A DNA stretch of 32,000 nt, from contig NZ_LT934425.1 in NCBI RefSeq assembly GCF_900232105.1, positions 30,001 to 62,000 of the forward strand, read 5' to 3'. Positions within the stretch are counted from its first letter, which is position 1. Every line of letters starts with the position of its first letter. Source of the stretch: Candidatus Kuenenia stuttgartensis. GTDB taxonomy: Bacteria > Planctomycetota > Brocadiia > Brocadiales > Brocadiaceae. This document shows positions 2,779 to 30,656 of this stretch, piece after piece. The notes under the pieces were generated by a model. That model did no database searches, had not been told where the DNA came from, and worked only from the letters and a program-made list of their open reading frames with translations. The translations under genes and the position numbers were made by a program.

Positions 2779-3046
2779 AAGGTATCCTTAAAAAAATAAA
2801 TTTAAGTTTTGGCAAAATATAGCCACAAGCGTATGGGTTTAGAAAAATTGAATTTAAACAAGGGGCTGCAATCCCTTGTTCAATGCGCATGCAATGTTTT
2901 TATGTTTAGAAAACCTAATTTGTTTGGCTATATCTAACGGTGAAATCCGATTTCGTATTTGAAAATTAATACTCAATGTGAAGGAATAAAGGTAAATGAG
3001 CAACAATTTGAGAATTGAACATTAACAGATATAATACCTCAAAAAA

Positions 3047-3649
3047 TTATTTCATTGTCCCTGACGCGAAGATATCGACAAATTCCTTTATAATCGCATC
3101 TGAATCATCAATTCTGTATTTTTTCCACATGAGAAATTCCTTTGCATCAAAATAGGAGAATAACATCCCAAGGAAGGCACGTGCTGCAGTTTCAGCATTA
3201 AACTCCCGAAGAACCCCTTTCTTTTGCATCGTTGTGAAATAGGAAGCCAGCGTTTTAAAAATTTCATCAATAAACGCATGATACATTTTTAGGATTTTTT
3301 GAGGATATCTTTGAATTTCAATATGCATTATTTTTATAATATCTTTTCTCACAGCAAGCGTATCGAGGAATCTTTCCGCAATAACAGTCAATGCTTCCGT
3401 ATAATGCATTTCAGCAACCTCCGGCAGAAGTCCCTGCAAAGCCGGAAGAAACGAATAGGTATTTAAAACTTCTTCAAAAAGTTTTTCTTTTGATATAAAA
3501 TGCCTGAAAATCGTTACCTCTGCAGTGCCCGCCTCTTTTGCGATTTCTCTCGTAGTTGTGCCAAGATAGCCTTTTTTTGAAAAAAGCTTCAATCCCGTTT
3601 CCAGAATCTTTTTCCTCGCCGAGTGTGCTTCTTCCTGATGACCGGACAT
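3047..3649 (-). CDS. TetR/AcrR family transcriptional regulator
   Basis: HTH signature ARKKILETGLKLFSKKGYLGTTTREIAKEAGTAEVTIFRHFISKEKLFEEV. The track ORF starts at a TTG (3697); the ATG at 3649 (MSGHQEE...) is the more plausible start. Same strand as and upstream of the efflux genes. Confidence 0.85.
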   Translation of the reverse strand: MSGHQEEAHSARKKILETGLKLFSKKGYLGTTTREIAKEAGTAEVTIFRHFISKEKLFEEVLNTYSFLPALQGLLPEVAEMHYTEALTVIAERFLDTLAVRKDIIKIMHIEIQRYPQKILKMYHAFIDEIFKTLASYFTTMQKKGVLREFNAETAARAFLGMLFSYFDAKEFLMWKKYRIDDSDAIIKEFVDIFASGTMK

Positions 3650-4108
3650 GATATATAACGAATACTGTAGTTTATTCAAAATAAAATTGATTTGCAATTG
3701 TTAGCATACGCTTACATTAGCATTATAATTTGAATATATTGTTTTTCAACATTTAAAACAGATACATAGGTTTCTCATTACTTTTTTGCATGAACAATTG
3801 TTTTGATTGATAACGACCCTTTGAACGATTACAATTATGGCTTATTGCCGATAACGTACATGCACAATACTTCATTTACCGTATCAATTTAATCTCTTGA
3901 AAAAACAAAAACGCTCATTTCCATGCCAGAGTTTTAAAACAAGGGCGATTGCTAAAAACTGTGCCCCGCTGACGTGGTTGTAGAAGGTGAAATTGAGGGG
4001 TAGGAATGCAGAATGACTGCTGCACAGCATGATTTTGCTTTGATGGTTTTTCAAAAAAACGAAAGTGTTACGATTTATTAAATTCCTCTCTTTATAACAA
4101 CGGTAACA

Positions 4109-5941: not shown

Positions 5942-5975
5942 ACTGCGAATTGAATCATTGCCGCAAAACTCATTT

Positions 5976-6803
5976 TCAGAGCAGAAGTGCGCTGAAAAAA
6001 CCAATCAACGCCCCAAATACCCCTCCCCAAACAACAAGCCAGCCCAGGTGACTGCGTATCATTTCCTCAACAATTTTCTTTACATGTTGCGGCGATAATT
6101 CATTGAGTCTCGCATTTACCATAGTATCAATCTTCGACCGAAAGGAGTCGAAATCAGTTTCTTTTTGCAATATCGAAGCTATGTCAATGTTTGTTATGAT
6201 ATCCGTCACCTGTTTTTCCATTTCGGCTTTAAATGGTTCTCTCAGCGGTTCAAGGGCATTTTTTCCTCCAAACATATCCAGCATGCCGCCAAAGGTCGAT
6301 TTTTTCACGGTGGAAACCAGCCCGGCAAATACTTTGTCAAAATCTATCTGATCCATTACAAGTTCCGGCTTTATGGTATGAGGAAGTGTTTCCTGCGTGA
6401 CTTTGGCAAAGTTTTTTTCTGTAAAAAAATTCTCCATAATCAACGAACGAATGCCTTCCTTAAATTGTTCAAACCTGAGCGTAATTATTCCTGAACCGTA
6501 CAGGCCGGGTATTTTTTCGAATAACATATGAATGGCTACCCAGTTTGTCAATGCGCCGGACAAGGCAAAGAGACTTGCATGCACTATCACTGTCTTTCCA
6601 AAAAAAGATGGATAAAAATAAGAAACAAGAAAGACAATACCGGCTATAAGATTGGTAAGTAAACTTTTATTCACGAAAGATATCCTCACTGAAATTTCAA
6701 ATAATAAGGCATAGATATAGTCAAACAAATAAGGTTTTAGAAAATTTACCTCTCCCCCCTGCCGCCTCTTTTTAGATGGAAGAGAAGATGCCCCCTCTAT
6801 CAA
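5976..6803 (-). CDS. DUF445-family membrane protein (start uncertain)
   Basis: Motifs GALTNWVAIHMLFEKIPG and the C-terminal HLGWLVVWGGVFGALIGFFSALLL match my recollection of DUF445 (YheB-like). The 5' ~25 codons overlap a REP-like hairpin (6790-6821), so the true start may be further downstream. Confidence 0.55.
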   Translation of the reverse strand: MIEGASSLPSKKRRQGGEVNFLKPYLFDYIYALLFEISVRISFVNKSLLTNLIAGIVFLVSYFYPSFFGKTVIVHASLFALSGALTNWVAIHMLFEKIPGLYGSGIITLRFEQFKEGIRSLIMENFFTEKNFAKVTQETLPHTIKPELVMDQIDFDKVFAGLVSTVKKSTFGGMLDMFGGKNALEPLREPFKAEMEKQVTDIITNIDIASILQKETDFDSFRSKIDTMVNARLNELSPQHVKKIVEEMIRSHLGWLVVWGGVFGALIGFFSALLL

Positions 6804-14246: not shown

Positions 14247-16082
14247 ATGGACAAGAATGAACACGAATTCATTTCGCTGGTTGATCTTGGCATGGCCTAT
14301 CGCAAAGCAAAGGCTGACCTTTTTTATTCTCCTAGGGCATGCAGGAAAGCTTTGTCTGCTTTAGAGTTAAGACTATCGAAGAAGCTCGTGGCACTTCAAA
14401 ATAAGCTTACTAAAGGAGAAGCACCGTCTGTTTCAAGCCAAAAGTGGACACTGGTTCCTAAAGAGATTAAATACGAAGAATTTAAAACAGAACAGATCAG
14501 TTCTGATCCACAACACCTTTGGGACTCAATCTGCAAACATGAGAACGTTAATTCGAGGAAAGTACAGGCGGAATTCCGGCTGATGGAGAAGCTGTCTATC
14601 GAATTTCATGTTTTTGCAGCACTCTGGATTAACAAAATCGGTCATAAGTTTGAAGCTAAACTAACGACCTCCGCTCGAGGAAATCGTCTCCGGCGGAACA
14701 AAAACGGCAAAATCAACACCCTTTCGCTTGGTTCAACCGTTCCTTACTTGTATGCTTACTGCAAATGGCGCGACGATGCCTTCGTTGCCATGGAGAATGC
14801 CTTGGAGCATGAAAAGTCGGTAGTCGCTATTACCGCCGATGTCACCTCTTTTTACCATAAACTCGATGTCCGCTTCATGCTCAATGATCACTTTATTAAG
14901 CGGATCGGTGTTGAGCTGGATAATGATGAAAAGAAGCTCCATTCCCTGTTCATCACTGCGCTTTATCAATGGGCAAAAAAAACTCCTCTCAAACGAGGGC
15001 TGCCCGTTGGTCTTACAGCATCTTCGGTCATTGCCAATGTGGCGTTGTTTGAACTGGACGGGCTTTTCGAGCGTGAAATTGTGCCGCTGTATTACGGACG
15101 TTATGTAGATGACATCATTCTTGTCATGGAAAACGGGGCGAATTTCAAGAGATCCGTCGAGATATGGGATTGGCTAGTTGCGCGTATGGATAAAGCGTTG
15201 AGATGGAAAGATGAAAAAGACAAAAAGGAGTTGCAATACACTCAGCCATATCTTGATGGCAGCGAAATCATCTTTGCCAACAAAAAGAATAAAACATTCC
15301 TGCTTTCAGGTGCGAGTGGTCTTTCCGTGCTGAAATCCATTCAGCATGAGGTTCAGATTCGTACCAGTGAGTGGCGCGCATTGCCCGCTCTACCTGGCAA
15401 CAGCACCCAATTGGAATCCATGCTACTGACCGCGATTCAAAGAGATGGCATCTCGGCCGATAGTCTGCGTAAAGCTGATAAAGTTTCGGTGCGGCGCGCC
15501 GGTTTTGCGCTCAAGCTGCGAGATATCGAGGCCTATGCACGAGCACTGTCCCCTGATAAATGGCAAAAACAACGTCACTCGTTTCTAACCGCCTTTATCC
15601 GCCATGTTCTGGTGCTGCCGACCTTCTTTGATTTCTACAACTACCTGTCACGCATACTGATGCTTGCGGTTAGCTGTGGCGATTTCGCCCATCTGCGCAA
15701 GATGCTGGATGCCTTGGAAAAGATATTGATGCAACTGGAAGACTGCGATATAAGTATCAAGGCGCAACCGAAGAGCAGGTCACGAATAGAGAAACCCATA
15801 TCTCTAGTATCGGAACACTTCCAAAAAAAGCTGAAGACAATCTTCTGTAAAAATCTGAAGACAATCATCTGTGAGTCCATCGAATGCGCTTATCCGTTGC
15901 GGCTGACCCGGGAATCGAAGACACTTTGGAGTACACATTTTGATGAGAATCATGATCTCTATATACCTCAGCCATTTCGAAAGATTCAGGCACGGCACCA
16001 GCGATACCTGAAGCAGGACCTGGCGCACAGTCCACTGAAAACATGTTTGTTGCAACCCGCTGCTAAGCCCCACAATAAATGA
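14247..16082 (+). CDS. Stand-alone reverse transcriptase of the Abi/UG (defence-associated) type; last 6 codons and stop are supplied by the transposon end
   Basis: RT palm motifs: VVAITADVTSFYHKLD (catalytic D codon at 14838-14840), GLPVGLTASSVIANVALFELD (14997-15047) and YGRYVDDIILV (YVDD at 15102-15113). About 300 aa of helical-looking C-terminal extension follow, with no maturase X motif, no endonuclease and no retron-like flanking non-coding DNA. Starts 7 nt after the AIPR gene stop. Transposon identity begins at 16061, inside codon GCT (16059-16061). Confidence 0.75.
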   Translation: MDKNEHEFISLVDLGMAYRKAKADLFYSPRACRKALSALELRLSKKLVALQNKLTKGEAPSVSSQKWTLVPKEIKYEEFKTEQISSDPQHLWDSICKHENVNSRKVQAEFRLMEKLSIEFHVFAALWINKIGHKFEAKLTTSARGNRLRRNKNGKINTLSLGSTVPYLYAYCKWRDDAFVAMENALEHEKSVVAITADVTSFYHKLDVRFMLNDHFIKRIGVELDNDEKKLHSLFITALYQWAKKTPLKRGLPVGLTASSVIANVALFELDGLFEREIVPLYYGRYVDDIILVMENGANFKRSVEIWDWLVARMDKALRWKDEKDKKELQYTQPYLDGSEIIFANKKNKTFLLSGASGLSVLKSIQHEVQIRTSEWRALPALPGNSTQLESMLLTAIQRDGISADSLRKADKVSVRRAGFALKLRDIEAYARALSPDKWQKQRHSFLTAFIRHVLVLPTFFDFYNYLSRILMLAVSCGDFAHLRKMLDALEKILMQLEDCDISIKAQPKSRSRIEKPISLVSEHFQKKLKTIFCKNLKTIICESIECAYPLRLTRESKTLWSTHFDENHDLYIPQPFRKIQARHQRYLKQDLAHSPLKTCLLQPAAKPHNK

Positions 16083-16098
16083 ACCTGGAATTCTCAGA

Positions 16099-16401
16099 TT
16101 AAGTGGAATTAATATATTGAGGTAAAACGGATTTTAGCAGATAGACAGCATCTGGGAAAGAGGAGTTGGAATCTACCATGACGATGTCGATGGTATTAAA
16201 GTTTTTTTTACAACGGAAACACCTGGCGAGGTTCGTATTTGGGTTGGTGGCGGAATTAAATTCAGAACAGAGAGGGCAGAGGAAGCGGAAATAGCCTTCG
16301 GAGTATTTATGAGGTATGGAGAGGACATCAGCGATGAGTCGATCGATGGGGATATCGTTTCGTAATGAGCGCAAGAGTTGAGGGGAAAAGAGACGGGCCA
16401 T
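16099..16401 (-). CDS. Transposon gene 4: small CHC2-like zinc-finger protein
   Basis: 100 aa with an AGGAGG SD. FRFLCPLCSEFNSATNPNTNLARCFRCKKNFNTIDIVM resembles the primase-type CHC2 finger (CP.H.E..PS......... .C..C...G..I.F). Its stop lies only 38 bp from the transposon end. Confidence 0.55.
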   Translation of the reverse strand: MARLFSPQLLRSLRNDIPIDRLIADVLSIPHKYSEGYFRFLCPLCSEFNSATNPNTNLARCFRCKKNFNTIDIVMVDSNSSFPDAVYLLKSVLPQYINST

Positions 16402-16412
16402 GGTAGACCTCC

Positions 16413-17204
16413 TTAAAAAGATTGAATTTCAGCAAGAGCCTGATGGAAGATATCCTGGGTAATTTTCTGTGATTGTCTGATGGAAGCGTTAATCAGGCAG
16501 GCGGTGGAAATGGCGTTGATTTGCCTTGGGATGCCGGCGGAGAACTCATGGATCAGGTCTTTGACGTCTGAGTCAAAGATTTTATCGGATGCGCCGGAAG
16601 ATTTCAGATGGAAGTCTATGTATGCAGCGGTTTGAGTTTTAGTAAGGGGATGAATGTGGTAATGTACCGAGATGCGTTGTGCGAAGTCGGCATGGATGTC
16701 TCTTTTGAGGATATATTTGAGGTGTTCCTGTCCCGAGAGGATGATTTTGAGATGAGTGGAAGAATCAAGCGGAGAGCTGACAAGGAGTCTGAGGTCTGTG
16801 ATGGCGTCGGTTTTCAGGAGATGAGCCTCGTCGATAACGATAATGGGAGTGAGATTTGAGCGCAAGGATTTATCCATAATTTGGAGGAAGAGCCGGTCTT
16901 TGGTGTGTTTTGGTATTTCACCGAGCTGGGAGACGATTAAGGAGAGAAGGCTGGATGATTTTAGGTGGGTAAAATGGAGGTAGATGGGGAGAAACAGGTT
17001 TTGGGGGATTTGTGAGAGGAAGAGTTTGAGGAGTGTGGATTTTCCGACTCCCGTCTGTCCGTAGAGGACGGCGATAGAGCCTGAGTGTAAGAGGTATTGG
17101 AGTCGTGCAAGCCCCTGGGTAAAGCGTTCGTCTTTCATGATAAGGCTGGTGTTGATTCTTTCAGAGAACGGCTGAGTAGTCATGGAAAAATGAGAAGTAA
17201 ACAT
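16413..17204 (-). CDS. Transposon gene 3: AAA+ ATPase (ExeA/TniB/TnsC-like transposition ATPase)
   Basis: 263 aa. The N-terminal FSMTTQPFSERINTSLIMKDERFTQGLARLQYLL is ExeA-like. Walker A is LYGQTGVGKST and Walker B is PIIVIDEAHLL. It starts 3 nt after the transposase stop. Confidence 0.8.
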   Translation of the reverse strand: MFTSHFSMTTQPFSERINTSLIMKDERFTQGLARLQYLLHSGSIAVLYGQTGVGKSTLLKLFLSQIPQNLFLPIYLHFTHLKSSSLLSLIVSQLGEIPKHTKDRLFLQIMDKSLRSNLTPIIVIDEAHLLKTDAITDLRLLVSSPLDSSTHLKIILSGQEHLKYILKRDIHADFAQRISVHYHIHPLTKTQTAAYIDFHLKSSGASDKIFDSDVKDLIHEFSAGIPRQINAISTACLINASIRQSQKITQDIFHQALAEIQSF

Positions 17205-17206
17205 GG

Positions 17207-18767
17207 TTAAGAGACCTCCTTTTTCGAGTAAGCGATTTGTAATTCACGAATGATATAGGGTAAGGTTTTCACGGAGGCATTTTGGAATGCCTCCGTGAGC
17301 AATGATTCGTTGAGAGCGGGGATACGGTTGTAGCATTTTTTAAGCGATTCGAGTTCATGAGAGCTGAAGGCGGAGAGAGAGCCTTTGTGTCCCATGAGGA
17401 GTGCGAGTTTCTGGACGAATGCCATGAATGGCCAGGGTCGTTCGGAGATGATTTGGTGGTAATCAATGCCTTTGGCCTGAGCCTGGAGAATGGATTTGTG
17501 TTTCTGAGTGATAGGGTCGAGGTAATTATGTTTTGGTTTTGAAGGTGAGGCGGCTGGAGTTTCAGCGCCCTGGTCGCGCAGGTAGAGATTTCCCGAGCCG
17601 AGGTATTCACCGTTTGCGGAATAGATCAAGACCTTTTTGAGATCGCCGTATGGGTCGTAACGGACTTCTACTTTATCGCCTCTGAGTTTGGGGTCAACAC
17701 GGTAAAAGCGGTTATCAATGCGGACATCGGCAAAGGTTCTGTCAACGGTTCTGGGGATGCGTTTCATGAAGAAGGCAAGAGCGGCGTCCATATCGACGTG
17801 TCGGATGACGGTAAGCCCCTCGTCGTAGCGTTGTTTTGGAGATTGATTGGTTTCGGAGTGGATTCTTGCGTGATAGACAACGGCAAGGTAAGCGGAGAAG
17901 GCCTGGTTAATGGCATCAAGGGTGATAATGTCGCCGGAGCGGACTTCCGACTCGAACTGTGTCTGGCTGGTGCCGAAGAAACGTTCGACCAGTCCGCCGG
18001 GAGCAGGGTCGCGTGGTGGTCTGTGGATGAGTTTAATGCCGAGGTTGTAACAGGCAGAGCGCAGGGCGTCAGAGTGGTAGACCTTGGCATTGTCGAGGTA
18101 GAGTTCTTTGGGCGAGCCGTGGATAGTCCAGGCCCTGATGAGAGAATCGATAAGGATATCGAGGGTTTGTTTGAGATAATACCGTCCTTCGACCACATAA
18201 CGGCTGTAGCAGTCGATAAAGAGACAGAGGTTTGTGGGAAGCGCCTCGCCGTCAACGAGCACGAAAGGGCCTTCCTGGAAGTCGCCAATCCAGAGGTCGT
18301 GGGTATGCTCACGGCTAAGAGCGTATACGCACCTTTTGCTGTGAGACGCCGAGTTTGAGCCGGGTCGCCCCTGCGAGTCTGAGATGGCGGTAGAGGGTGG
18401 ATTTGGGGATCGTTTTCCCATAGTATTTCTCAAGAAAGCGGTTGAGGCAATCGTCGCTGCGGCGTGGTTGTTCTTTTTTGAGTTCAACGGCTTTGTCGAT
18501 AATTTCAGGAGAAAACCTTCTGGATGCGCCACGGTCGCTCCTCGCCTTTCTTGCAAGAGATTGAAATCCATCTTTGCGGTAGCGGTTGAGTTTTCTCCTG
18601 AGGGTAGAGATAGTGGGTCTTTTCCGCTTTCCGTTGGGGAATACGACCTCCTGAAGGCAGAGTTTTTTCAGAAAAAGGTTGGTCTGCTCCTTCTCAATCT
18701 CACCGAAGATGACAGGATGCAGAAGATTGCACCAGAATAAAGCCCATTTTTCGTCTTTCGATTTCAT
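17207..18767 (-). CDS. Transposon gene 2: DDE transposase (Mu A/TnsB/TniA-like), encoded in two overlapping frames requiring a +1 shift
   Basis: Frame 1 (18767-18315) holds the HTH N-terminal domains (ISTLRRKLNRYRKDGFQSLARKARSDRG...TIPKSTLYRHLRLAG). Frame 2 (to 17207) holds the DDE core (HDLWIGDF, LCLFIDCYSRYVVG, ELYLDNAKVYHS, GGLVERFF). It also holds a Mu-transposase-type C-terminal domain (VRIDNRFYRVDPKLRGDKVEVRYDPYGDLKKVLIY). This copy has no internal stop other than the frame junction. Confidence 0.8.
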
Positions 18768-18805
18768 AATTCACCTCCTTTTTTAAGTGTGGAGGTGATT
18801 GTAAC

Positions 18806-19444
18806 TCAAGACCAGCCGCTTTTTGTTGCCAGTTCGGGGAAAAATGAATGCCCAAAAATTCGGTGATATTCCGGCTCGGCGCTGAACAATTGAATCGATT
18901 GATCGAGGGAGGTTTTTCGTTGTTTGCTTTTATACTTTCCGTGGTAAATGGGAAACATTTGGCGAAAAACCGGAGAGTTGGGGTCGGCCTGCCTGATGAG
19001 GTCAAAGGCGTTGCGGAGTGTGTATTTCAGTGAGCCAAAGAAACGCAGCCACCTCCAAACGGTTGACCAGGCAAGCATGCGGTTGTCTATTTCCTGTGTT
19101 CGGGTAGTATATCCGATGGCAGAGGAGACACTCCGGTAGGTTTCTGTATCATCTTTGACATAAGCCTGACTGAAGGAGAGACAGTGATCCTTTACGTACC
19201 GCTTGTAAGGGAGCGCATACTCAGGATAGGAAGTAAACGTCTTCTTGCACAAGGAACATTTCCAACGTCCCAGGAAAGATTCTATCGTATGAACAAGGGA
19301 GTCGATAATAACGTGAAACAACCGATATCTGCATTCATGAAGGGTGAAATTGACATGGGTACTCTTGCACTTTGGACAAAAGCATGGCTTCTGTTTTGTC
19401 GCAATAAGCTTTTCATGCTTGTGGATTTTTTCTATAATATTCAC
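18806..19444 (-). CDS. Transposon gene 1: zinc-ribbon protein of unknown function
   Basis: 212 aa, GTG start 6 nt after AGGAGG. Two CxxC pairs (CFCPKCKSTHVNFTLHEC...RWKCSLCKKTFTSYPEYALPYKRY). The pattern resembles transposase-adjacent DUF6431-type proteins from memory, so this is a low-confidence family call. Confidence 0.5.
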   Translation of the reverse strand: MNIIEKIHKHEKLIATKQKPCFCPKCKSTHVNFTLHECRYRLFHVIIDSLVHTIESFLGRWKCSLCKKTFTSYPEYALPYKRYVKDHCLSFSQAYVKDDTETYRSVSSAIGYTTRTQEIDNRMLAWSTVWRWLRFFGSLKYTLRNAFDLIRQADPNSPVFRQMFPIYHGKYKSKQRKTSLDQSIQLFSAEPEYHRIFGHSFFPELATKSGWS

Positions 19445-19850
19445 GCACTGCCTCCTTTGTATAGAGGGGAAATGGGCAGGAGGATGAAGTTTCCCAACGT
19501 TCGGTCCTCCTGCCCTGAGTTTTTTATGTTCCGGAAAAATCTTACAAAACTTGTCCTCGTGAAAACGGGGAACTGGGAAGTAAACCGCCGTTAGGAAGTT
19601 TGGAAGTGGTTTTAACCTCTTCCAAACTATTTAATGAGGCTTTACTCCGCCTTACGGACGGAACTTCTTTCTAACGGGGTAAACGATGTATTTTTCTTAA
19701 CGTGAACAAAAAATCAAGTGAAATACTTACGCAGGATAAAAAAAAGGCGGGGTAGCTGGGTAAGATTTTTCAAATCATTTGCTGGGTATTAGACTCAAAT
19801 ATTCTGAGACTAATTGGGCATTTTTGGAGCATTTATTCTAAGACGTAGCA

Positions 19851-20783
19851 TCTGGTGATGTCTCTGATGTTGTTCCTTCGGCAGGCTCAGGACAGGCTCT
19901 TGAGTTTGTTCAGTGATTTCGTGCTTATACCCTTATACTTGCCCTTGAAATCGTATCCGAGAAACCTGAAACCTCTTTCGAAGTTGGTGAGCTTGGTTTT
20001 ATCCTCGCTCAGCTTCATTCCAAGTTTCCCTGCAATGATTTCTTTGACATAGCTGAGGGCGGCTGGGAGTTCATCTTTTGTTTTAGTCATGACAACGAAA
20101 TCATCGGCGTATCGGACAAACTTATATCCAGCCTTTTCAAGTTCCTTGTCGATGATGTCACCGATAAGGTTTGCAAGCAAAGGGGAAATGACGCCTCCTT
20201 GCGGAGTGCCTTTGTTTGTCTCGTGCACGATGCCGTCCTCCATGACCCCTGCTTTGAGCATGTTCTCAATACTGTTCAAAACCCATCCATCAGCGATTTT
20301 CTCACGTAAGGAGTCCATAATAAGCTTATGGGGTATGGTGTCATAGAATGCCATTATATCGGCATCAAGGACGCTGGTATACCCTTCCTGCTTATACTGT
20401 TCAAGCCGTTTGATAGCATCGTGACAGCATCTGTCAGGGCGAAATCCAAAGCTGTTATCTGAGAATCCTTTCTCAAATATTGGCTCTATGATTTGCCTGA
20501 ACGCCTGCTGTACAATCCTGTCCTTAACAATGGGAATGCCAAGAGGTCTCTTGTCATGCCTGCCTTTGGGGATGTATACCCGCAGGACAGGCGCAGGGTT
20601 GTATATGGCAGTCTTGAGTTCCTGATGGATACTCATGATATTCACATCAAGATTGGACTCAAATTGCTTAATACTTACCCTGTCAAGACCAGCTTTGCCT
20701 TTATTCTTCTTTACGTGTTTGAAAGCAGCATAAAGGTTTTTCAGACTAAACACCTTGTCTCTTAATGAATGATACTTAAGCAT
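19851..20783 (-). pseudogene. Group II intron RT (IEP) fragment lacking the maturase domain
   Basis: Track ORF 19887-20783 is identical in protein to 28017-28913 (RT domains 0-7, YADD). It has the same in-frame TGA (19889-19887). The reading frame is then cut by the transposon end at 19850/19851. Confidence 0.9.
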
Positions 20784-21154
20784 CTCTCGATATATTCCTT
20801 TCGATTGATTACGGATAATAGACTTGTCAATCGTGTTTCCTGGGTACGGATTCTCCCAAACATAGGCAAAAACAAGAGAGGCTCTTGTTACTGCTTACCT
20901 ACGCAAAAGAGTTTCTTTTCTCATTGAACGTATTCAATCTACCACTTTCATCAATTCCACTACGGTTATGCCCCTTTCATTTCCGATTCACACCGGAAAC
21001 TATTATGAGCAATGCTGACGACTTCAAAGATAGACTTGTGAGAGAAGCTTGTCTATCACCATCTCATACAGCTCGGACTTCGGAATTTCCTTATACCTTG
21101 CTGTTAGGGAATTTTGCCCAAGACGTAAGTCCTCCCCCGGTCATATGGATTACC
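19851..21154 (-). mobile_element. Internal fragment (1,304 bp) of a group II intron, truncated at both ends by transposon ends
   Basis: Reverse complement matches 27646-28949 of the fuller copy. I noticed two substitutions: copy 1 21123 a versus copy 2 27677 c (G vs D in the antisense-ORF translation), and copy 1 20254 t versus copy 2 28546 g (silent K codon in the IEP). Identity stops exactly at the transposon termini on both sides. Confidence 0.9.
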
Positions 21155-21560
21155 TGCTACGTCTTAGAATAAATGCTCCAAAAATGCCCAATTAGTCTCA
21201 GAATATTTGAGTCTAATACCCAGCAAATGATTTGAAAAATCTTACCCAGCTACCCCGCCTTTTTTTTATCCTGCGTAAGTATTTCACTTGATTTTTTGTT
21301 CACGTTAAGAAAAATACATCGTTTACCCCGTTAGAAAGAAGTTCCGTCCGTAAGGCGGAGTAAAGCCTCATTAAATAGTTTGGAAGGGGTTAAAACCACT
21401 TCCAAACTTCCTAACGGCGGTTTACTTCCCAGTTCCCCGTTTTCACGAGGACAAGTTTTGTAAGATTTTTCCGGAACATAAAAAACTCAGGGCAGGAGGA
21501 CCGAACGTTGGGAAACTTCATCCTCCTGCCCATTTCCCCCCTATACAAAGGAGGCAGTGC

Positions 21561-22199
21561 GTGAATATTATAGAAAAAATCCACAAGCATGAAAAGCTTA
21601 TTGCGACAAAACAGAAGCCATGCTTTTGTCCAAAGTGCAAGAGTACCCATGTCAATTTCACCCTTCATGAATGCAGATATCGGTTGTTTCACGTTATTAT
21701 CGACTCCCTTGTTCATACGATAGAATCTTTCCTGGGACGTTGGAAATGTTCCTTGTGCAAGAAGACGTTTACTTCCTATCCTGAGTATGCGCTCCCTTAC
21801 AAGCGGTACGTAAAGGATCACTGTCTCTCCTTCAGTCAGGCTTATGTCAAAGATGATACAGAAACCTACCGGAGTGTCTCCTCTGCCATCGGATATACTA
21901 CCCGAACACAGGAAATAGACAACCGCATGCTTGCCTGGTCAACCGTTTGGAGGTGGCTGCGTTTCTTTGGCTCACTGAAATACACACTCCGCAACGCCTT
22001 TGACCTCATCAGGCAGGCCGACCCCAACTCTCCGGTTTTTCGCCAAATGTTTCCCATTTACCACGGAAAGTATAAAAGCAAACAACGAAAAACCTCCCTC
22101 GATCAATCGATTCAATTGTTCAGCGCCGAGCCGGAATATCACCGAATTTTTGGGCATTCATTTTTCCCCGAACTGGCAACAAAAAGCGGCTGGTCTTGA
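21561..22199 (+). CDS. Transposon gene 1 (copy B): zinc-ribbon protein
   Basis: Protein identical to 18806-19444. Confidence 0.5.
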   Translation: MNIIEKIHKHEKLIATKQKPCFCPKCKSTHVNFTLHECRYRLFHVIIDSLVHTIESFLGRWKCSLCKKTFTSYPEYALPYKRYVKDHCLSFSQAYVKDDTETYRSVSSAIGYTTRTQEIDNRMLAWSTVWRWLRFFGSLKYTLRNAFDLIRQADPNSPVFRQMFPIYHGKYKSKQRKTSLDQSIQLFSAEPEYHRIFGHSFFPELATKSGWS

Positions 22200-22237
22200 G
22201 TTACAATCACCTCCACACTTAAAAAAGGAGGTGAATT

Positions 22238-23798
22238 ATGAAATCGAAAGACGAAAAATGGGCTTTATTCTGGTGCAATCTTCTGCATCCTGTCATCTTC
22301 GGTGAGATTGAGAAGGAGCAGACCAACCTTTTTCTGAAAAAACTCTGCCTTCAGGAGGTCGTATTCCCCAACGGAAAGCGGAAAAGACCCACTATCTCTA
22401 CCCTCAGGAGAAAACTCAACCGCTACCGCAAAGATGGATTTCAATCTCTTGCAAGAAAGGCGAGGAGCGACCGTGGCGCATCCAGAAGGTTTTCTCCTGA
22501 AATTATCGACAAAGCCGTTGAACTCAAAAAAGAACAACCACGCCGCAGCGACGATTGCCTCAACCGCTTTCTTGAGAAATACTATGGGAAAACGATCCCC
22601 AAATCCACCCTCTACCGCCATCTCAGACTCGCAGGGGCGACCCGGCTCAAACTCGGCGTCTCACAGCAAAAGGTGCGTATACGCTCTTAGCCGTGAGCAT
22701 ACCCACGACCTCTGGATTGGCGACTTCCAGGAAGGCCCTTTCGTGCTCGTTGACGGCGAGGCGCTTCCCACAAACCTCTGTCTCTTTATCGACTGCTACA
22801 GCCGTTATGTGGTCGAAGGACGGTATTATCTCAAACAAACCCTCGATATCCTTATCGATTCTCTCATCAGGGCCTGGACTATCCACGGCTCGCCCAAAGA
22901 ACTCTACCTCGACAATGCCAAGGTCTACCACTCTGACGCCCTGCGCTCTGCCTGTTACAACCTCGGCATTAAACTCATCCACAGACCACCACGCGACCCT
23001 GCTCCCGGCGGACTGGTCGAACGTTTCTTCGGCACCAGCCAGACATAGTTCGAGTCGGAAGTCCGCTCCGGCGACATTATCACCCTTGATGCCATTAACC
23101 AGGCCTTCTCCGCTTACCTTGCCGTTGTCTATCACGCAAGAATCCACTCCGAAACCAATCAATCTCCAAAACAACGCTACGACGAGGGGCTTACCGTCAT
23201 CCGACACGTCGATATGGACGCCGCTCTTGCCTTCTTCATGAAACGCATCCCCAGAACCGTTGACAGAACCTTTGCCGATGTCCGCATTGATAACCGCTTT
23301 TACCGTGTTGACCCCAAACTCAGAGGCGATAAAGTAGAAGTCCGTTACGACCCATACGGCGATCTCAAAAAGGTCTTGATCTATTCCGCAAACGGTGAAT
23401 ACCTCGGCTCGGGAAATCTCTACCTGCGCGACCAGGGCGCTGAAACTCCAGCCGCCTCACCTTCAAAACCAAAACATAATTACCTCGACCTTATCACTCA
23501 GAAACACAAATCCATTCTCCAGGCTCAGGCCAAAGGCATTGATTACCACCAAATCATCTCCGAACGACCCTGGCCATTCATGGCATTCGTCCAGAAACTC
23601 GCACTCCTCATGGGACACAAAGGCTCTCTCTCCGCCTTCAGCTCTCATGAACTCGAATCGCTTAAAAAATGCTACAACCGTATCCCCGCTCTCAACGAAT
23701 CATTGCTCACGGAGGCATTCCAAAATGCCTCCGTGAAAACCTTACCCTATATCATTCGTGAATTACAAATCGCTTACTCGAAAAAGGAGGTCTCTTAA
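22238..23798 (+). pseudogene. Transposon gene 2 (copy B): DDE transposase with the shared +1 frame break plus a copy-specific nonsense codon
   Basis: Same two-frame organisation as copy A (frame break within 22650-22690). In addition, TAG at 23046-23048 replaces the CAG of copy A (...FFGTSQT*FESEV), splitting the DDE core from the C-terminal domain. Confidence 0.85.
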
Positions 23799-23800
23799 CC

Positions 23801-24592
23801 ATGTTTACTTCTCATTTTTCCATGACTACTCAGCCGTTCTCTGAAAGAATCAACACCAGCCTTATCATGAAAGACGAACGCTTTACCCAGGGGCTTGCAC
23901 GACTCCAATACCTCTTACACTCAGGCTCTATCGCCGTCCTCTACGGACAGACGGGAGTCGGAAAATCCACACTCCTCAAACTCTTCCTCTCACAAATCCC
24001 CCAAAACCTGTTTCTCCCCATCTACCTCCATTTTACCCACCTAAAATCATCCAGCCTTCTCTCCTTAATCGTCTCCCAGCTCGGTGAAATACCAAAACAC
24101 ACCAAAGACCGGCTCTTCCTCCAAATTATGGATAAATCCTTGCGCTCAAATCTCACTCCCATTATCGTTATCGACGAGGCTCATCTCCTGAAAACCGACG
24201 CCATCACAGACCTCAGACTCCTTGTCAGCTCTCCGCTTGATTCTTCCACTCATCTCAAAATCATCCTCTCGGGACAGGAACACCTCAAATATATCCTCAA
24301 AAGAGACATCCATGCCGACTTCGCACAACGCATCTCGGTACATTACCACATTCATCCCCTTACTAAAACTCAAACCGCTGCATACATAGACTTCCATCTG
24401 AAATCTTCCGGCGCATCCGATAAAATCTTTGACTCAGACGTCAAAGACCTGATCCATGAGTTCTCCGCCGGCATCCCAAGGCAAATCAACGCCATTTCCA
24501 CCGCCTGCCTGATTAACGCTTCCATCAGACAATCACAGAAAATTACCCAGGATATCTTCCATCAGGCTCTTGCTGAAATTCAATCTTTTTAA
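23801..24592 (+). CDS. Transposon gene 3 (copy B): AAA+ transposition ATPase
   Basis: Protein identical to 16413-17204. Confidence 0.8.
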   Translation: MFTSHFSMTTQPFSERINTSLIMKDERFTQGLARLQYLLHSGSIAVLYGQTGVGKSTLLKLFLSQIPQNLFLPIYLHFTHLKSSSLLSLIVSQLGEIPKHTKDRLFLQIMDKSLRSNLTPIIVIDEAHLLKTDAITDLRLLVSSPLDSSTHLKIILSGQEHLKYILKRDIHADFAQRISVHYHIHPLTKTQTAAYIDFHLKSSGASDKIFDSDVKDLIHEFSAGIPRQINAISTACLINASIRQSQKITQDIFHQALAEIQSF

Positions 24593-24603
24593 GGAGGTCT
24601 ACC

Positions 24604-24906
24604 ATGGCCCGTCTCTTTTCCCCTCAACTCTTGCGCTCATTACGAAACGATATCCCCATCGATCGACTCATCGCTGATGTCCTCTCCATACCTCATAAAT
24701 ACTCCGAAGGCTATTTCCGCTTCCTCTGCCCTCTCTGTTCTGAATTTAATTCCGCCACCAACCCAAATACGAACCTCGCCAGGTGTTTCCGTTGTAAAAA
24801 AAACTTTAATACCATCGACATCGTCATGGTAGATTCCAACTCCTCTTTCCCAGATGCTGTCTATCTGCTAAAATCCGTTTTACCTCAATATATTAATTCC
24901 ACTTAA
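24604..24906 (+). CDS. Transposon gene 4 (copy B): CHC2-like zinc-finger protein
   Basis: Protein identical to 16099-16401. Confidence 0.55.
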   Translation: MARLFSPQLLRSLRNDIPIDRLIADVLSIPHKYSEGYFRFLCPLCSEFNSATNPNTNLARCFRCKKNFNTIDIVMVDSNSSFPDAVYLLKSVLPQYINST

Positions 24907-24922
24907 TCTGAGAATTCCAGGT

Positions 24923-25018
24923 TCATTTATTGTGGGGCTTAGCAGTTAAGCCTTTCCCGCTCATCTCTGCCTTGATTTTCGGTTGTCTTTTGCTGTATTT
25001 TTTTGCTATATTCTTCAT
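24923..25018 (-). CDS. Small Lys-rich ORF cut by the transposon end; candidate (truncated) RiPP precursor leader
   Basis: My own translation; the ORF is below the track size cutoff. ATG at 25018, with AGGAG 13 nt upstream. It reads MKNIAKKYSKRQPKIKAEMSGKGL up to the junction at 24945, then runs into transposon DNA (TAKPHNK*). It lies 79 nt downstream of the PqqD-like gene on the same strand. Confidence 0.25.
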   Translation of the reverse strand: MKNIAKKYSKRQPKIKAEMSGKGLTAKPHNK

Positions 25019-25097: not shown

Positions 25098-25325
25098 CTA
25101 TTCCTGCAACAAGGCTTTGCCTTGTTTGCAGGATTTAGGTTTAATTATTTCGCTTATCTCTCCAACCGTAAGACCGCTACTGAACATTTGCCAGATCCGC
25201 AGTCCTGTTTCATTTAAGGTGAAGTACATCTTCGTGCCCAGATGGAGAAGGACGGCCTCTTTGCCCTCTAATTCAGTAATAACAACATCAGGGTCAGGCG
25301 TTACCCTATAATTTAACTCCAGCAT
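25098..25325 (-). CDS. PqqD-family peptide-binding protein (RiPP recognition element), C-terminally short
   Basis: 75 aa with a strong SD (AAAGGAGG). DPDVVITELEGKEAVLLHLGTKMYFTLNETGLRIWQMFSSGLTVGEISEII matches the PqqD/RRE pattern. The last ~14 codons are encoded by a hairpin (25101-25130) and do not look like the usual PqqD C-terminal helix. Confidence 0.7.
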   Translation of the reverse strand: MLELNYRVTPDPDVVITELEGKEAVLLHLGTKMYFTLNETGLRIWQMFSSGLTVGEISEIIKPKSCKQGKALLQE

Positions 25326-25470
25326 CTTTTATCAACCTCCTTTTCAGTATTTCTCGTAATTATTCAATATGAAGTGAAAGACCTCCCATCCCTTCCTATC
25401 TGCGAAGGAGGGGAGATAAGAAGTCCCCCCTTCAAGAGGGGATTTAGGAGTGTGTTTAATAATCTTGATA

Positions 25471-26502
25471 TTATGCAAATATCACTTCCGTCCAAACCAT
25501 GCGAGACCAGGGGTTTCCCGAAAACTCTTTCAGCCAGTCTACCTTCTTAAAATAATTCAAACAGAACCAACAGGGAAAATAATCTGAATCTCTAAATTTA
25601 CCATTGCTGTAGTGTTCAAGCTTCTCTTTTTGAAATTTCCCACTAGCCTCAACCAAACTTACATAAGCCTCAGAAAAACTCATCTCATTCAAATTGCCTA
25701 TTATATCATCGTTTCCCACATCTTCTCCATGTCCCGATAAATTACAGCACATGGTGACATTGCCTCGCCAGTCGATGTTAATCTCTTCCATTTTAAGCGA
25801 AGCGCAAGGAAAGAGTTCGGTCGTATAGTATCCCGATGCCATAACAATAGGAATGGAAAATGTTTTCTGGAGCTGACAGATGATAGTTTCTGTTTGCCTT
25901 CTTTCTATCGGCGAAATGTCCATATTTTCTGATACGATTCGGGGAGTTGAAATAAGATGGCCAAGCCTGAGTCCCCGGCCTCCCAGTTTTGCTGCAAGCA
26001 TGGCTATTTCATTTAATTCACCCCGACTGTGGGACGTAATGACCGTATTGAAGGTGAAGGGAATATCTTTTACCACGCAAATGCTTACTGCCTGCATCAC
26101 CCGGCGATACGAACCCTTTCCACGAAGCATGTCATGTGTTTCCTCCCTTGCACCTTCTAAACTAAAGGTAATTCCAGTAAGACTATTAAGATGCGGGAGC
26201 AACTTCTCATAAATTCGGGTAAAATTCCAACCATTTGTTACAAAGCCAAAGTTATATCCAGCTTCTGATACCATCGTGAGCATCTCGGTAAATCCGGGAT
26301 GCAACGTTGGCTCTCCGCCAGTAAAGGAGATGTAATCAAAGCCATGCCCCCTGGCATTCCGGAGAATTCTTTCTAAGATTTCTATTTTCAGGTCTCCGTC
26401 ACCACTATGCCTTCCATCAAGGCAATGATGGCAACTTAAATTACAGCGATTGGTAAGTTCTATCAATATTCCCGGCATTGTAGTATTACTGTATAAAAGC
26501 AT
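25471..26502 (-). CDS. Radical SAM enzyme with SPASM/twitch-like Cys-rich C-terminal domain (peptide maturase type)
   Basis: 343 aa. CxxxCxxC cluster ELTNRCNLSCHHCLDG (Cys codons between 26445 and 26422). SAM-binding FTGGEPTLHP. C-terminal Cys groups are FPCAS, GNVTMCCNLSGHG and YFPCWFCLNYF. Confidence 0.8.
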   Translation of the reverse strand: MLLYSNTTMPGILIELTNRCNLSCHHCLDGRHSGDGDLKIEILERILRNARGHGFDYISFTGGEPTLHPGFTEMLTMVSEAGYNFGFVTNGWNFTRIYEKLLPHLNSLTGITFSLEGAREETHDMLRGKGSYRRVMQAVSICVVKDIPFTFNTVITSHSRGELNEIAMLAAKLGGRGLRLGHLISTPRIVSENMDISPIERRQTETIICQLQKTFSIPIVMASGYYTTELFPCASLKMEEINIDWRGNVTMCCNLSGHGEDVGNDDIIGNLNEMSFSEAYVSLVEASGKFQKEKLEHYSNGKFRDSDYFPCWFCLNYFKKVDWLKEFSGNPWSRMVWTEVIFA

Positions 26503-26943: not shown

Positions 26944-27326
26944 ATGAGTAAAATAGCAGCAAGAAAATATAACAAGATATTGAGAAGAAAGAAACGGAAA
27001 ATAGAGAAACGGTTAAAGAGAAAGCAATGGGGAGATCAGAAGCATCCGATGTTCACGGCAAAGAACATTCATTACGAGATAGCCGCGAATAGCCAGGCAA
27101 TTGCCTGTGGTGGTATAGGCGTAATCCATCAAATGGCAATAAGAAGTGGATTGGTAAAAGAGATAGACGAGAATCTTGAGTTACTCAAAAGGCATATACC
27201 GTATCATGAATCGGATCATATATTGAATATAGCGTACAATGTGCTTTCAGGGAATGTGCGGTTAGAAGACATAGAGTTGCATCGGCAAGACAGCGGCTAT
27301 TTGGATGCGTTGGGTGCAGAGCGGAT
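26944..27326 (+). pseudogene. IS1380-family-like transposase, N-terminal fragment (~127 codons)
   Basis: ACGGIGVIHQMAIRSGLVKEIDENLELLKRHIPYHESDHILNIAYNVLSGNVRLEDIELHRQDSGYLDALGAER fits the N-terminal pattern I associate with IS1380-type transposases (...L.GG.RLEDIE.LR.D......LG.ER-IP.P.T). Family-like sequence stops at ~27326. The remaining track-ORF residues (CALKYGIPEWLKIPPLRA*) look like read-through into other DNA. No DDE domain is found anywhere downstream. Confidence 0.55.
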
Positions 27327-29360
27327 GTGTGCCTTGAAGTATGGAATACCTGAGTGGTTGAAAATACCACCTCTGCGAGCCTAATCCTCGTAGAGAAGTT
27401 TGTGCCTATGCGCACACAATGGAGCAATCCGTATGCGTAGAAAGATAGCATATACCCGTGAGGGGTATGACGGAGTTACGAGGTACAGACGACCTTTTGG
27501 GGTGTATGAGTGTGGCGTGTTATTCCGTGCCAACTGCCATTTCTCAGCGAAGCACTGACAATGTCCTTTGTTGGAGATGGATAAACAGATTAAGTAAAAC
27601 CATCTCTGGTTAATGCGTTTGAACATACATCACGAAGGGAAAAGGGGTAATCCATATGACCGGGGGAGGACTTACGCCTTGGGCAAAATTCCCTAACAGC
27701 AAGGTATAAGGAAATTCCGAAGTCCGAGCTGTATGAGATGGTGATAGACAAGCTTCTCTCACAAGTCTATCTTTGAAGTCGTCAGCATTGCTCATAATAG
27801 TTTCCGGTGTGAATCGGAAATGAAAGGGGCATAACCGTAGTGGAATTGATGAAAGTGGTAGATTGAATACGTTCAATGAGAAAAGAAACTCTTTTGCGTA
27901 GGTAAGCAGTAACAAGAGCCTCTCTTGTTTTTGCCTATGTTTGGGAGAATCCGTACCCAGGAAACACGATTGACAAGTCTATTATCCGTAATCAATCGAA
28001 AGGAATATATCGAGAGATGCTTAAGTATCATTCATTAAGAGACAAGGTGTTTAGTCTGAAAAACCTTTATGCTGCTTTCAAACACGTAAAGAAGAATAAA
28101 GGCAAAGCTGGTCTTGACAGGGTAAGTATTAAGCAATTTGAGTCCAATCTTGATGTGAATATCATGAGTATCCATCAGGAACTCAAGACTGCCATATACA
28201 ACCCTGCGCCTGTCCTGCGGGTATACATCCCCAAAGGCAGGCATGACAAGAGACCTCTTGGCATTCCCATTGTTAAGGACAGGATTGTACAGCAGGCGTT
28301 CAGGCAAATCATAGAGCCAATATTTGAGAAAGGATTCTCAGATAACAGCTTTGGATTTCGCCCTGACAGATGCTGTCACGATGCTATCAAACGGCTTGAA
28401 CAGTATAAGCAGGAAGGGTATACCAGCGTCCTTGATGCCGATATAATGGCATTCTATGACACCATACCCCATAAGCTTATTATGGACTCCTTACGTGAGA
28501 AAATTGCTGATGGATGGGTTTTGAACAGTATTGAGAACATGCTCAAGGCAGGGGTCATGGAGGACGGCATCGTGCACGAGACAAACAAAGGCACTCCGCA
28601 AGGAGGCGTCATTTCCCCTTTGCTTGCAAACCTTATCGGTGACATCATCGACAAGGAACTTGAAAAGGCTGGATATAAGTTTGTCCGATACGCCGATGAT
28701 TTCGTTGTCATGACTAAAACAAAAGATGAACTCCCAGCCGCCCTCAGCTATGTCAAAGAAATCATTGCAGGGAAACTTGGAATGAAGCTGAGCGAGGATA
28801 AAACCAAGCTCACCAACTTCGAAAGAGGTTTCAGGTTTCTCGGATACGATTTCAAGGGCAAGTATAAGGGTATAAGCACGAAATCACTGAACAAACTCAA
28901 GAGCCTGTCCTGAGCCTGCCGAAGGAACAACATCAGAGACATCACCAGACGTACACAGGGCGTCAATCTGCAAGCCATTGTTGATACATTAAACCCTGTA
29001 ATTCGTGGGCATGTCAACTATTTTCGGCTGGGCAATGTACAAAAGGTATATCGCTCATTAGACTGTTGGGTACGCATGAGACTGAGATGTTTCAAGTTCT
29101 CAAGAAAATGGAGAACAGACAACAAGCGTTTCCCTGTTCACCGATTCTTTAAAATGGGGTTACTCTCATTCGAAAGAGAATTTCTTAAGGCGTGTGCTAA
29201 AGCATGATGTTTGACTTTTCTCTGTTATAGAGCAACACTTCGGGGTCGCTGACTACGAGAAAGACGTATGGTTTAAAAAGGATGCTTTGTCACGTTGTCC
29301 AAAGTATCTGGCGACGAGTGGGGGTTGGAGGCTAATGGCCTCCAGCCTACCAGCTATAAC
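27327..29360 (+). mobile_element. Group II intron, fuller copy (ribozyme boundaries approximate)
   Basis: The firm part is 27646-28949 (matches the inverted fragment) plus the IEP ORF to 29207. The 5' end is proposed at GTGTG (27327-27331), exactly where the IS1380-like reading frame loses family resemblance and ~690 nt before the IEP start. The 3' end is unresolved, between 29208 and ~29388. A strong hairpin at 29322-29348 followed by AC is a possible domain VI / 3' end. I could not confidently fold domain V. Confidence 0.6.
28017..29207 (+). pseudogene. Group II intron-encoded RT/maturase (no endonuclease domain) with an in-frame TGA
   Basis: RT domains: RVYIPKGRHDKRPLGIPIVKDRIVQQA, VLDADIMAFYDTIPH, GTPQGGVISPLLANL and VRYADDFVVM. 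The maturase X domain lies in the same frame after TGA 28911-28913: IRDITRRTQGVNLQAIVDTLNPVIRGHVNYFRLGN. The stop is at 29205-29207. Confidence 0.85.
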
Positions 29361-30607: not shown

Positions 30608-30656
30608 ACAGTCGGCAGTCGGCAGTCGGCAATTTGCAATTTGCCGACTGCCGACC
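30608..30656. repeat. Heptamer-phased array forming a perfect 15-bp stem hairpin
   Basis: Seven consecutive 7-mers: CAGTCGG x3, CAATTTG x2, CCGACTG, CCGACCG. gtcggcagtcggcaa (30617-30631) pairs perfectly with ttgccgactgccgac (30640-30654), leaving an 8-nt loop. A partial copy, ggcagtcggcagtcaaatt, sits at 29621-29639. Confidence 0.8.

Follow-up and report, generated by a model that had tools for sequence, protein, structure and literature searches.

We analysed 32,000 nucleotides of the Candidatus Kuenenia stuttgartensis genome (contig NZ_LT934425.1, positions 30,001 to 62,000), a stretch that we refer to as the window and whose own numbering is used throughout, and we conclude, with a probability of about 0.75, that the element at 21155-24944, 3.8 kb long and organised like an insertion sequence, is a transposon from a distinct and widespread family of the Mu/Tn552/Tn5053/Tn7 superfamily. 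Its four genes, separated by 38, 2 and 11 nt, encode a DUF6431-like zinc-ribbon protein (Zn1), a DDE transposase, an ExeA-like AAA+ ATPase and a small zinc protein related to bacterial primase (Zn2). An earlier reading of the same DNA, made from its letters alone and called here the original prediction, had proposed Mu/Tn7/Tn5053-type machinery at this place, and the DDE core with a Mu C-terminal domain next to an AAA+ ATPase agrees with it.

The strongest evidence for a family comes from its recurrence in other genomes. Scanning one genome for each species gave 269 loci, 80 of which were kept for a count of gene order. All four genes stand in the same order in 42 of these 80 loci and seven more are cut by contig ends or interrupted, while the set, which we call class A, is missing from the other 31. 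The succession DUF6431, rve/Mu-C, AAA_22 and DnaG ribbon can be read directly in L001, L003 and L094-L098. The hosts belong to Planctomycetota, Thermodesulfobacteriota (Desulfobacterota), Bacteroidota, Omnitrophota, Oligoflexia and Ignavibacteriales, with one archaeal bin. Because the order recurs so often, and does so in active multi-copy sets as well, Zn1 and Zn2 are core parts of the element and not passengers; homologues that lacked the two small open reading frames (ORFs) would have counted against the original prediction, and instead they conserve them. Zn1 forms 587 clusters at 50% identity in a representative library, and Zn2 has at least 961 homologues of 94-145 amino acids (aa), many of them on element-sized contigs of 3.7-4.5 kb; within the four-gene family, Zn2 measures 95-100 aa. 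As for the archaeal bin, a Candidatus Methanophagaceae contig of 3544 bp (L044), binned with an ANME-1 archaeon, carries a complete class-A element, which reflects either a cross-domain host or a binning error.

The nearest annotated relatives of the transposase, at about 30% identity, are plasmid genes of Streptomyces, Thermobacillus and Burkholderia. They are flanked by the genes of a DUF6431-type zinc protein and of an AAA ATPase and are not accompanied by a primase-like gene, and the looser DUF6431-DDE-AAA trio extends to Actinobacteria, Bacillota and Burkholderia. Because the plasmid relatives keep the trio without the primase-like gene, the trio represents the broader family and Zn2 is the mark of a sub-lineage.

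Members of the family have moved recently. We examined nine copies in Desulfoferrobacter suflitae DRH4, each of 4321 bp and 99.86-100% identical, and a delta-proteobacterial metagenome-assembled genome holds ten copies of 3693 bp; in such multi-copy genomes, each copy has different flanks. Direct duplications border 22 of 31 copies, seventeen of them being 6 bp long, three 7 bp and two 5 bp, and two Kuenenia copies have the duplications CCTGGG and CCGAG. The intact four-gene unit is therefore mobile, with 6-bp duplications at many unrelated sites. The duplicated sequence shows a weak central preference, approximately ccTAGr (CTAG-centred), and a sequence-specific target selector is therefore unlikely. 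Collecting homologous elements in this way, as the original prediction had recommended, defined the ends, the duplication length of 6 (5-7) bp and the weak CTAG preference. In a crude test of orientation relative to replication, the GC skew of the flanks was positive for 18 and negative for 14 of 32 copies and gave no signal. The coding strand of the element is itself strongly C-rich (for example at 22500-24900), with a GC skew of -0.26 in Kuenenia and of -0.17 to -0.20 in two Desulfobacterota sets, and in the copies of all hosts this bias is independent of the flanking skew. Kuenenia copies (L087-L093; CP049055.1, JASNYJ010000001.1) lie mostly in or beside transposase genes of the IS110, IS4-like DDE_Tnp_1 and ISL3 types, L089 interrupting an IS110-type gene and L091 an IS4-like one; this neighbourhood could be a target preference or simply consist of tolerated sites.

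The transposase follows the Mu-like plan, in which an rve DDE core precedes a Mu C-terminal domain. The latter is matched by Mu-transpos_C (PF09299) at E 3.6e-10 and 40.1 bits against a cutoff of 21.7, and is followed by a C-terminal tail of about 120 aa, while the rve match of 28.8 bits falls slightly below its cutoff of 32.6; the D, D and E motifs can be read as DLWIGDF, LYLDNAK and GGLVERFF. The predicted DDE transposase with a Mu-type C-terminal domain is thereby confirmed. Among the insertion sequence (IS) profiles of NCBIfam, the best score is that of IS481 (E 1e-22, 80.6 bits), and it could be asked whether the element is a plain IS481-family insertion sequence with three passenger genes. 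Some plasmid relatives do bear an IS481 label (H24), and a 6-bp duplication with a weak central CTAG resembles the NCTAGN duplicated by IS481, whose members have a single gene in about 1 kb. We regard this explanation as highly improbable: the score lies far under the equivalog cutoff of 224, the transposase has the Mu C-terminal domain and the long tail, and the elements reach 3.7-4.3 kb with four conserved genes, the order and spacing of the other three being kept across phyla and in all active multi-copy sets. Nor does the element belong to IS21, whose profile reaches 42.9 bits (cutoff 160) and whose IstB_IS21 domain is not matched by the ATPase.

Compared with the established members of the superfamily, the element shares the core and differs in its accessories. 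Domain profile searches found no TnsA, TniQ, resolvase or IstB among the four genes of the 3790-bp element, as the original prediction had held for TnsA, a TniQ/TnsD-sized selector and a resolvase. TniA of Tn5053/Tn402 matches residues 175-388 of the transposase at 29-31% identity (E ~1e-11), and these transposons likewise have the AAA+ gene directly downstream, then a small accessory gene, and no TnsA. However, the tniA-tniB-tniQ-res-tniR module is not present here, TniQ, the serine resolvase and the res site all being absent; there is an additional upstream DUF6431 gene, the duplications are of 6 bp and not 5 bp, nothing indicates res-site targeting, and the ATPase is ExeA-like with no clear TniB character. 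Tn552 (p480, p271, resolvase) has in common the transposase and ATPase core and the TG...CA ends, and its duplications measure 6-7 bp, but the element has no resolvase and carries two conserved zinc proteins that Tn552 does not have. The resemblance to Mu A/B extends over the N-terminal DNA binding, the DDE core, the Mu C-terminal barrel and the C-terminal tail, and includes an AAA+ target-DNA protein, putatively several transposase sites per end and, by analogy, a probable nick-only chemistry; unlike Mu, the element is not a phage, has no other genes in its 3.8 kb and makes duplications of 6 rather than 5 bp. In a search of solved structures with the transposase, MuA was not retrieved, and the closest relative was TnsB of the type V-K CRISPR-associated transposons (CASTs; E 3e-6), which also operate without TnsA. 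The element differs from Tn7 and the V-K systems in having no TniQ/TnsD, CRISPR module or attachment site and in having two motif copies per end, and instead of the 5-bp duplication and TGT termini of Tn7 it has mostly 6 bp and TGCTA. Finally, IS481 is set apart by the Mu C-terminal domain and the three further conserved genes found here.

The ATPase had been predicted to be ExeA/TniB-like. The ExeA part holds, with full-length similarity to the ExeA-like TIGR03015 at 1e-41 and an AAA_22 match of 75.7 bits, while for the TniB part no significant match was obtained, the TniB Pfam family reaching an E of 0.026. Zn1, which had been recognised as a 212-aa double-CxxC zinc-ribbon protein upstream of the transposase, is indeed one: the window protein scores 21.4 bits against DUF6431 (PF20020), below the cutoff of 26.6, and all 26 aligned family members match this domain (best E 1.2e-8), the pattern CxxC...H...CxxC being invariant.

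Zn2 is the most informative of the accessory proteins. The window protein matches PF01807 with 26.3 bits (cutoff 24.9), as do 45 of 45 relatives, and a profile of these 45 homologues retrieves the zinc-binding domain of Bacillus primase (1d0q) over residues 1-90. An AlphaFold2 model (pLDDT 92) superimposes on 1d0q in Foldseek with a TM of 0.76 and a probability of 1.00. Zn2 thus resembles the zinc-binding domain of DnaG from end to end, but it stands alone, without polymerase or helicase-binding domains, is encoded by a transposon, and carries CxxC...CxxC in place of the CxxH...CxxC ligands of DnaG, a Cys replacing the His so that the invariant ligands are C42, C45, C61 and C64. The description of a primase-like CHC2 finger was accordingly right about the primase and wrong about the ligands, which are of the C4 type.

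The place of Zn2 after the ATPase gene raises the idea of a reduced Tn5053/Tn7-like element in which Zn2, in the tniQ position, is a miniature TniQ target selector. The order of transposase, ATPase and small zinc protein mirrors tniA-tniB-tniQ, and TniA and TnsB are distant relatives of the transposase. Against this, none of the 45 Zn2 and none of the 26 Zn1 sequences gives a match to the Pfam family TniQ with the E threshold relaxed to 1, while all 45 Zn2 sequences match the DnaG zinc ribbon and the modelled fold is that of the primase domain. The predominance of 6-bp over 5-bp duplications, the absence of a resolvase, a res site and attachment-site specificity, and the occurrence of Zn2 upstream of the putative transposase in the elements described next make a miniature TniQ an improbable interpretation.

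These further elements, which we call class B, are about 4.3 kb long (L020 5231-9553), have inverted repeats TGATAGGATGCAAATAGTGTAACGC and make 5-6-bp duplications; ten of this L020 type were seen (L020, L032, L034, L039, L081, L065, L073, L076, L079 and L082). A Zn2 homologue, about 60% identical, lies close to their left end, and their further proteins comprise a weak AAA_22 protein, a Cys-rich protein of 219 aa and a protein of 563 aa that nothing in Pfam or PDB matches. Except for Zn2, the proteins of class B have no significant similarity to those of the window class. Zn2 is the most conserved protein of the element (mean column identity 57%), and towards distant members its identity of 58-67% compares with 32-45% for Zn1 and 42-58% for the ATPase. 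This pattern would fit a module that recognises something invariant, such as a DNA geometry or a host replication protein, and not the transposase.

Because Zn2 is the most conserved protein and is kept at about 60% identity in class B, which points to an invariant partner, we favour for it an adaptor role at the ATPase/target step. In its full form, this proposal is tentative and rather unlikely to hold as a whole: Zn2 would be a new kind of transposition accessory that connects a target-capturing AAA+ ATPase with the host primosome or with DNA that is single-stranded or replicating, would be portable and recruited independently by at least two unrelated transposase lineages (class A and the L020-type class B), and would with the DUF6431 protein define a branch of the Mu/Tn7 superfamily that had not been recognised before. 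Its main rival, which we hold to be possible although still on the unlikely side, is that the zinc proteins are regulators or host-interaction proteins, for example an operon repressor or a modulator of the host primase or replication, kept because they lower the cost of the element. The first position of the Zn1 gene, after conserved repeats and a conserved stem-loop, speaks for regulation, as do insertion sites with little sequence specificity, and the identity of about 60% between Zn2 proteins of elements whose other proteins are unrecognisable points to a conserved host or DNA partner in this case too; the tight linkage of the class-A Zn2 gene to the ATPase gene, with a gap of about 10-40 nt, speaks against this rival.

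With termini of TGCTA...TAGCA (TGCTACG... at the left tip and ...CTTAGCA at the right), the element exists in the window in two copies, and the repeat between them stops precisely at 21155 and 24944 in the presence of four differing flanks, which upholds the limits and termini that had been proposed. The terminal inverted repeats are imperfect, about 22 bp long, and have TG...CA tips; across hosts, their consensus is TGCTA(A/C)GTCC.ACAATAtTTGA. A 14-bp motif, TCTyAGAATAwwTG, occurs twice at each end in the same orientation, so that the predicted sharing of subterminal motifs between the ends extends to a repeated one. Counted inward from the tips, its copies occupy nt 8-21 and 42-55 on the left and nt 8-21 and 32-45 on the right; these pairs look like asymmetrically spaced transposase sites.

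Upstream of the Zn1 gene, three non-coding features had been predicted, two of which belong to the family. The 8-bp direct repeat TACCCAGC is present five times in the window against 0.5 expected, two of the five lying in the copy at 21155-24944, and is conserved in relatives. The 11-bp inverted repeat 21490-21500/21521-21531 has, in four lineages, an invariant stem and a variable loop, and in all four base pairing is predicted between the C-tract after the stem-loop and the Shine-Dalgarno sequence of Zn1, which suggests translational control of Zn1. The hairpin at about 21377-21408 is also present, though as part of a palindromic insertion confined to the Kuenenia lineage and absent from L094-L098. 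A promoter scan of the left end gave no convincing site, and Rfam and tRNA scans of the window gave no matches.

The original prediction had treated the element as a single copy and overlooked its inverted twin at 16061-19850, 1.3 kb away, for which a repeat finder gave the arm as 16060-19850. We call the twin copy 1 and the element at 21155-24944, which corresponds to 2552-6341 in loci L087-L093, copy 2. The two copies bracket, over 16061-24944, a fragment of a group II intron towards which both left ends face, and a comparison of the arms shows that they differ at 21387 and 21540, which are non-coding, at 23046, with C in copy 1 and T in copy 2 so that a Gln codon becomes a stop (CAA>TAA), and at 23491, a change from Pro to Leu. 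We rejected an assembly artefact as the source of the inverted pair, since the copies differ at four positions and independent Kuenenia assemblies show this element at many sites. One-step intramolecular replicative inversion was rejected too, the 6-bp duplicates that it predicts being mismatched (ACCCGC/GGTAAT, GTTAAG/ACCAGA and ACCCGC/GTTAAG), and movement of the pair as a composite transposon fails on the same predicted duplicates. By self-comparison, no intron sequence was found in the outer flanks of the pair. Among other Kuenenia copies, the left flank of L092 and the right flank of L087 have CTTCAC in common, a swap of flanks that points to recombination between copies. For the window copies, exchange among many copies is the best remaining idea, although it is not proven.

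Table 1. Coordinates of the element, its twin and their parts in the window.
Feature	Position	Strand	Remarks
Transposon copy 2	21155..24944	+	3790 bp; exact repeat limits against copy 1, unrelated flanks; transposase with frameshift and nonsense codon
Transposon copy 1, inverted	16061..19850	-	4 nt differ from copy 2; frameshifted, without the nonsense codon
Group II intron internal fragment	19851..21154	-	1304 nt, between both left ends, context only; reverse transcriptase ORF 19887-20783; same sequence at 27646-28949, within a longer intron
Left terminal inverted repeat	21155..21176	+	TGCTACGTCTTAGAATAAATGC; holds first 14-bp motif copy
Second 14-bp motif copy, left end, internal	21196..21209	+	Kept in L094-L097; putative transposase-binding site
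TACCCAGC direct repeats	21217..21250	+	21217-21224 and 21243-21250; iterated, conserved in relatives
Lineage-specific palindromic insertion	21325..21421	.	About 100 nt, carries hairpin; DNA fold -22.2 kcal/mol, z -3.1; missing from L094-L098
Conserved stem-loop, then C-tract	21490..21555	+	11-bp perfect stem; RNA fold -31 kcal/mol, z -3.25
Zn1	21561..22199	+	212 aa, DUF6431-like zinc ribbon, CxxC...CxxC
Transposase, N-terminal part	22238..22690	+	HTH_32; in-frame TAG at end
Transposase, catalytic part	22689..23798	+	DDE core, Mu C-terminal domain, C-terminal tail; +1 frame; TAA 23046-23048 in copy 2 only
AAA+ ATPase	23801..24592	+	263 aa, AAA_22 / ExeA-like, by profile matches
Zn2	24604..24906	+	100 aa, stand-alone homologue of the DnaG zinc-binding domain, C4 variant
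Second 14-bp motif copy, right end, internal	24900..24913	-	Kept downstream of Zn2 in L094-L098
Right terminal inverted repeat	24923..24944	-	TGCTAAGCCCCACAATAAATGA read inward

The transposase had been predicted as one gene. This is true of relatives, which have intact ORFs of 518-520 aa, and not of the window, in which both copies are frameshifted and copy 2 has an extra stop. The frame of the catalytic part is open over 22434-23798, and a +1 shift at TCT TAG C (22685-22691) is needed in both copies; joining the frames at TCT/T/AGC yields 519 aa. Where relatives read CGC TGG AGC (Arg-Trp-Ser/Thr), the window reads CGC TCT TAG C, so that by comparison the lesion consists of a 1-nt insertion and two substitutions, with loss of the conserved Trp codon. 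A sequence from another sample (P0150) encodes an intact protein, 99% identical, with RIRWSREH at this place. In a Candidatus Kuenenia stuttgartiensis protein from NCBI (P0153), compared with window 22630-22690, the frame is regained by a second shift about 17 codons upstream, and it has RPGSNSASHSKRCVYAL instead of ATRLKLGVSQQKVRIRW, an out-of-frame peptide being read between both shifts. We interpret the shift as a lesion rather than a design because close relatives are intact with a conserved Trp codon and because the compensating shift of P0153 is what a damaging mutation would be expected to elicit. The transposase of the window copies is disabled, doubly so in copy 2, and both copies are probably non-autonomous; we conclude that they spread or were homogenised through help in trans or gene conversion.

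Several findings weigh against our overall reading. The shift is present in seven of seven further Kuenenia copies retrieved, six in CP049055.1 and one in a second assembly (L093), which is unexpected if the element is dead and would be compatible with recoding or gene conversion. No target duplication appears in any pairing of the flanks of the window copies. For the ATPase, neither TnsC nor TniB nor MuB gave a significant match (E 0.5 for VchTnsC), the predicted structure of Zn1 has a pLDDT of 61 and returns nothing below E 3.9 in Foldseek, and our view of insertion as replicative or repair-dependent is drawn from one fact, the absence of a TnsA-like gene. Besides, the source records label the proteins in general terms ('Mu transposase C-terminal domain-containing protein', 'transposase InsO family', 'DNA primase', 'hypothetical'), and no family name or description was found in the source names, the NCBIfam equivalogs or the literature searched. 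The family is thus apparently undescribed, although ISfinder and TnCentral lay outside the comparison and may hold a name for it. The original prediction of an undescribed lineage with conserved zinc accessories is sustained as far as the databases searched allow, the absence of a name not being proven.

Recoding deserves separate consideration, since a programmed +1 shift at UCU UAG C would leave window copy 1 functional. All Kuenenia copies examined (the seven just mentioned and the two of the window) have the identical shift, the shifted variant is present in many samples, and the site ends in a stop codon. However, relatives 84-99% identical have a single open ORF and the conserved Trp codon, the site originated by an insertion plus two substitutions, and the Kuenenia allele P0153 restores the frame by a second-site deletion. 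Judged by the +1 frameshift site of prfB, re-pairing from UCU to CUU would be poor and the Shine-Dalgarno-like AGGUG lies 9 nt upstream. A programmed shift is on these grounds very unlikely.

With the four-gene transposon as our preferred reading, transposition could proceed as follows. The 519-aa transposase would bind the two motif copies of each end via its N-terminal helix-turn-helix region, cut at the CA-3' tips and join these 6 bp apart in the target, while the ExeA-like AAA+ ATPase, in the role of MuB, TniB or TnsC, may capture target DNA and activate the transposase through its C-terminal tail. Since a TnsA-like second nuclease is missing, the 5' ends would probably remain uncut, and transposition would follow a replicative or nick-and-repair route like that of Mu, Tn5053 and the type V-K CASTs, with no dedicated resolvase. 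Zn2 would most likely be a DNA- or host-factor-binding adaptor at the ATPase/target step. Zn1, composed of a transposase-type zinc ribbon and a helical domain, would most likely bind element DNA as an end factor or regulator, with the conserved TACCCAGC repeats and the stem-loop that precede its gene as candidate sites. Mobility of the window copies would require an intact or frame-restored copy to supply transposase in trans.

Other features of the window surround the two copies. The right end of copy 1 truncates a gene at 14247-16082 (+) for a 611-aa reverse transcriptase of the defence family RT_UG5-nitrilase (PADLOC E 6.6e-149, model 17-555 of 907), whose nitrilase part the window does not contain. 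Adjoining the right end of copy 2 is a peptide-maturation pair at 25098-26502 (-), which consists of a radical SAM/SPASM enzyme (343 aa) and a PqqD-like partner (75 aa); in L091, the same pair lies beside a differently arranged copy of the element, a strain-level rearrangement. Further downstream, a 146-aa N-terminal fragment of an IS1380-family transposase (26944-27384, +; NCBIfam E 1.2e-13) ends about 260 nt before an intron-derived repeat and may have been interrupted by the intron. The group II intron reverse transcriptase at 27646-29100 is split, a 298-aa ORF ending at 28913 and the maturase lying in another frame; the split was also called in L093, and the homologous intron of L094 reads through. 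Rfam found no group II intron anywhere in the window. In L094, a related element lies inside this homologous intron (L094 4279-4406 against window 28815-28966, 88-90% identical), inserted in opposite orientation 17 bp from the position of the window junction 28949/28950, and this proximity may reflect a hot spot or coincidence. Self-comparison also revealed a 38-nt near-perfect palindrome at 30618-30655 (94.7% self-complementary).

Transposons in which a DDE transposase works together with an AAA+ regulator, such as Mu, Tn7 and the CRISPR-associated transposons, are the best-understood examples of controlled target choice and are being engineered for genome insertion. The family to which the Kuenenia element belongs keeps the DDE/AAA+ core and has two small zinc proteins in place of TniQ/TnsD, TnsE and CRISPR effectors. 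Zn2, a primase domain, keeps about 60% identity from phylum to phylum and between the two element types. If it steers the ATPase, this would be a compact new targeting principle, in a family that is abundant, has been recently active in sulfate reducers and anammox bacteria, and is visibly rearranging their genomes.

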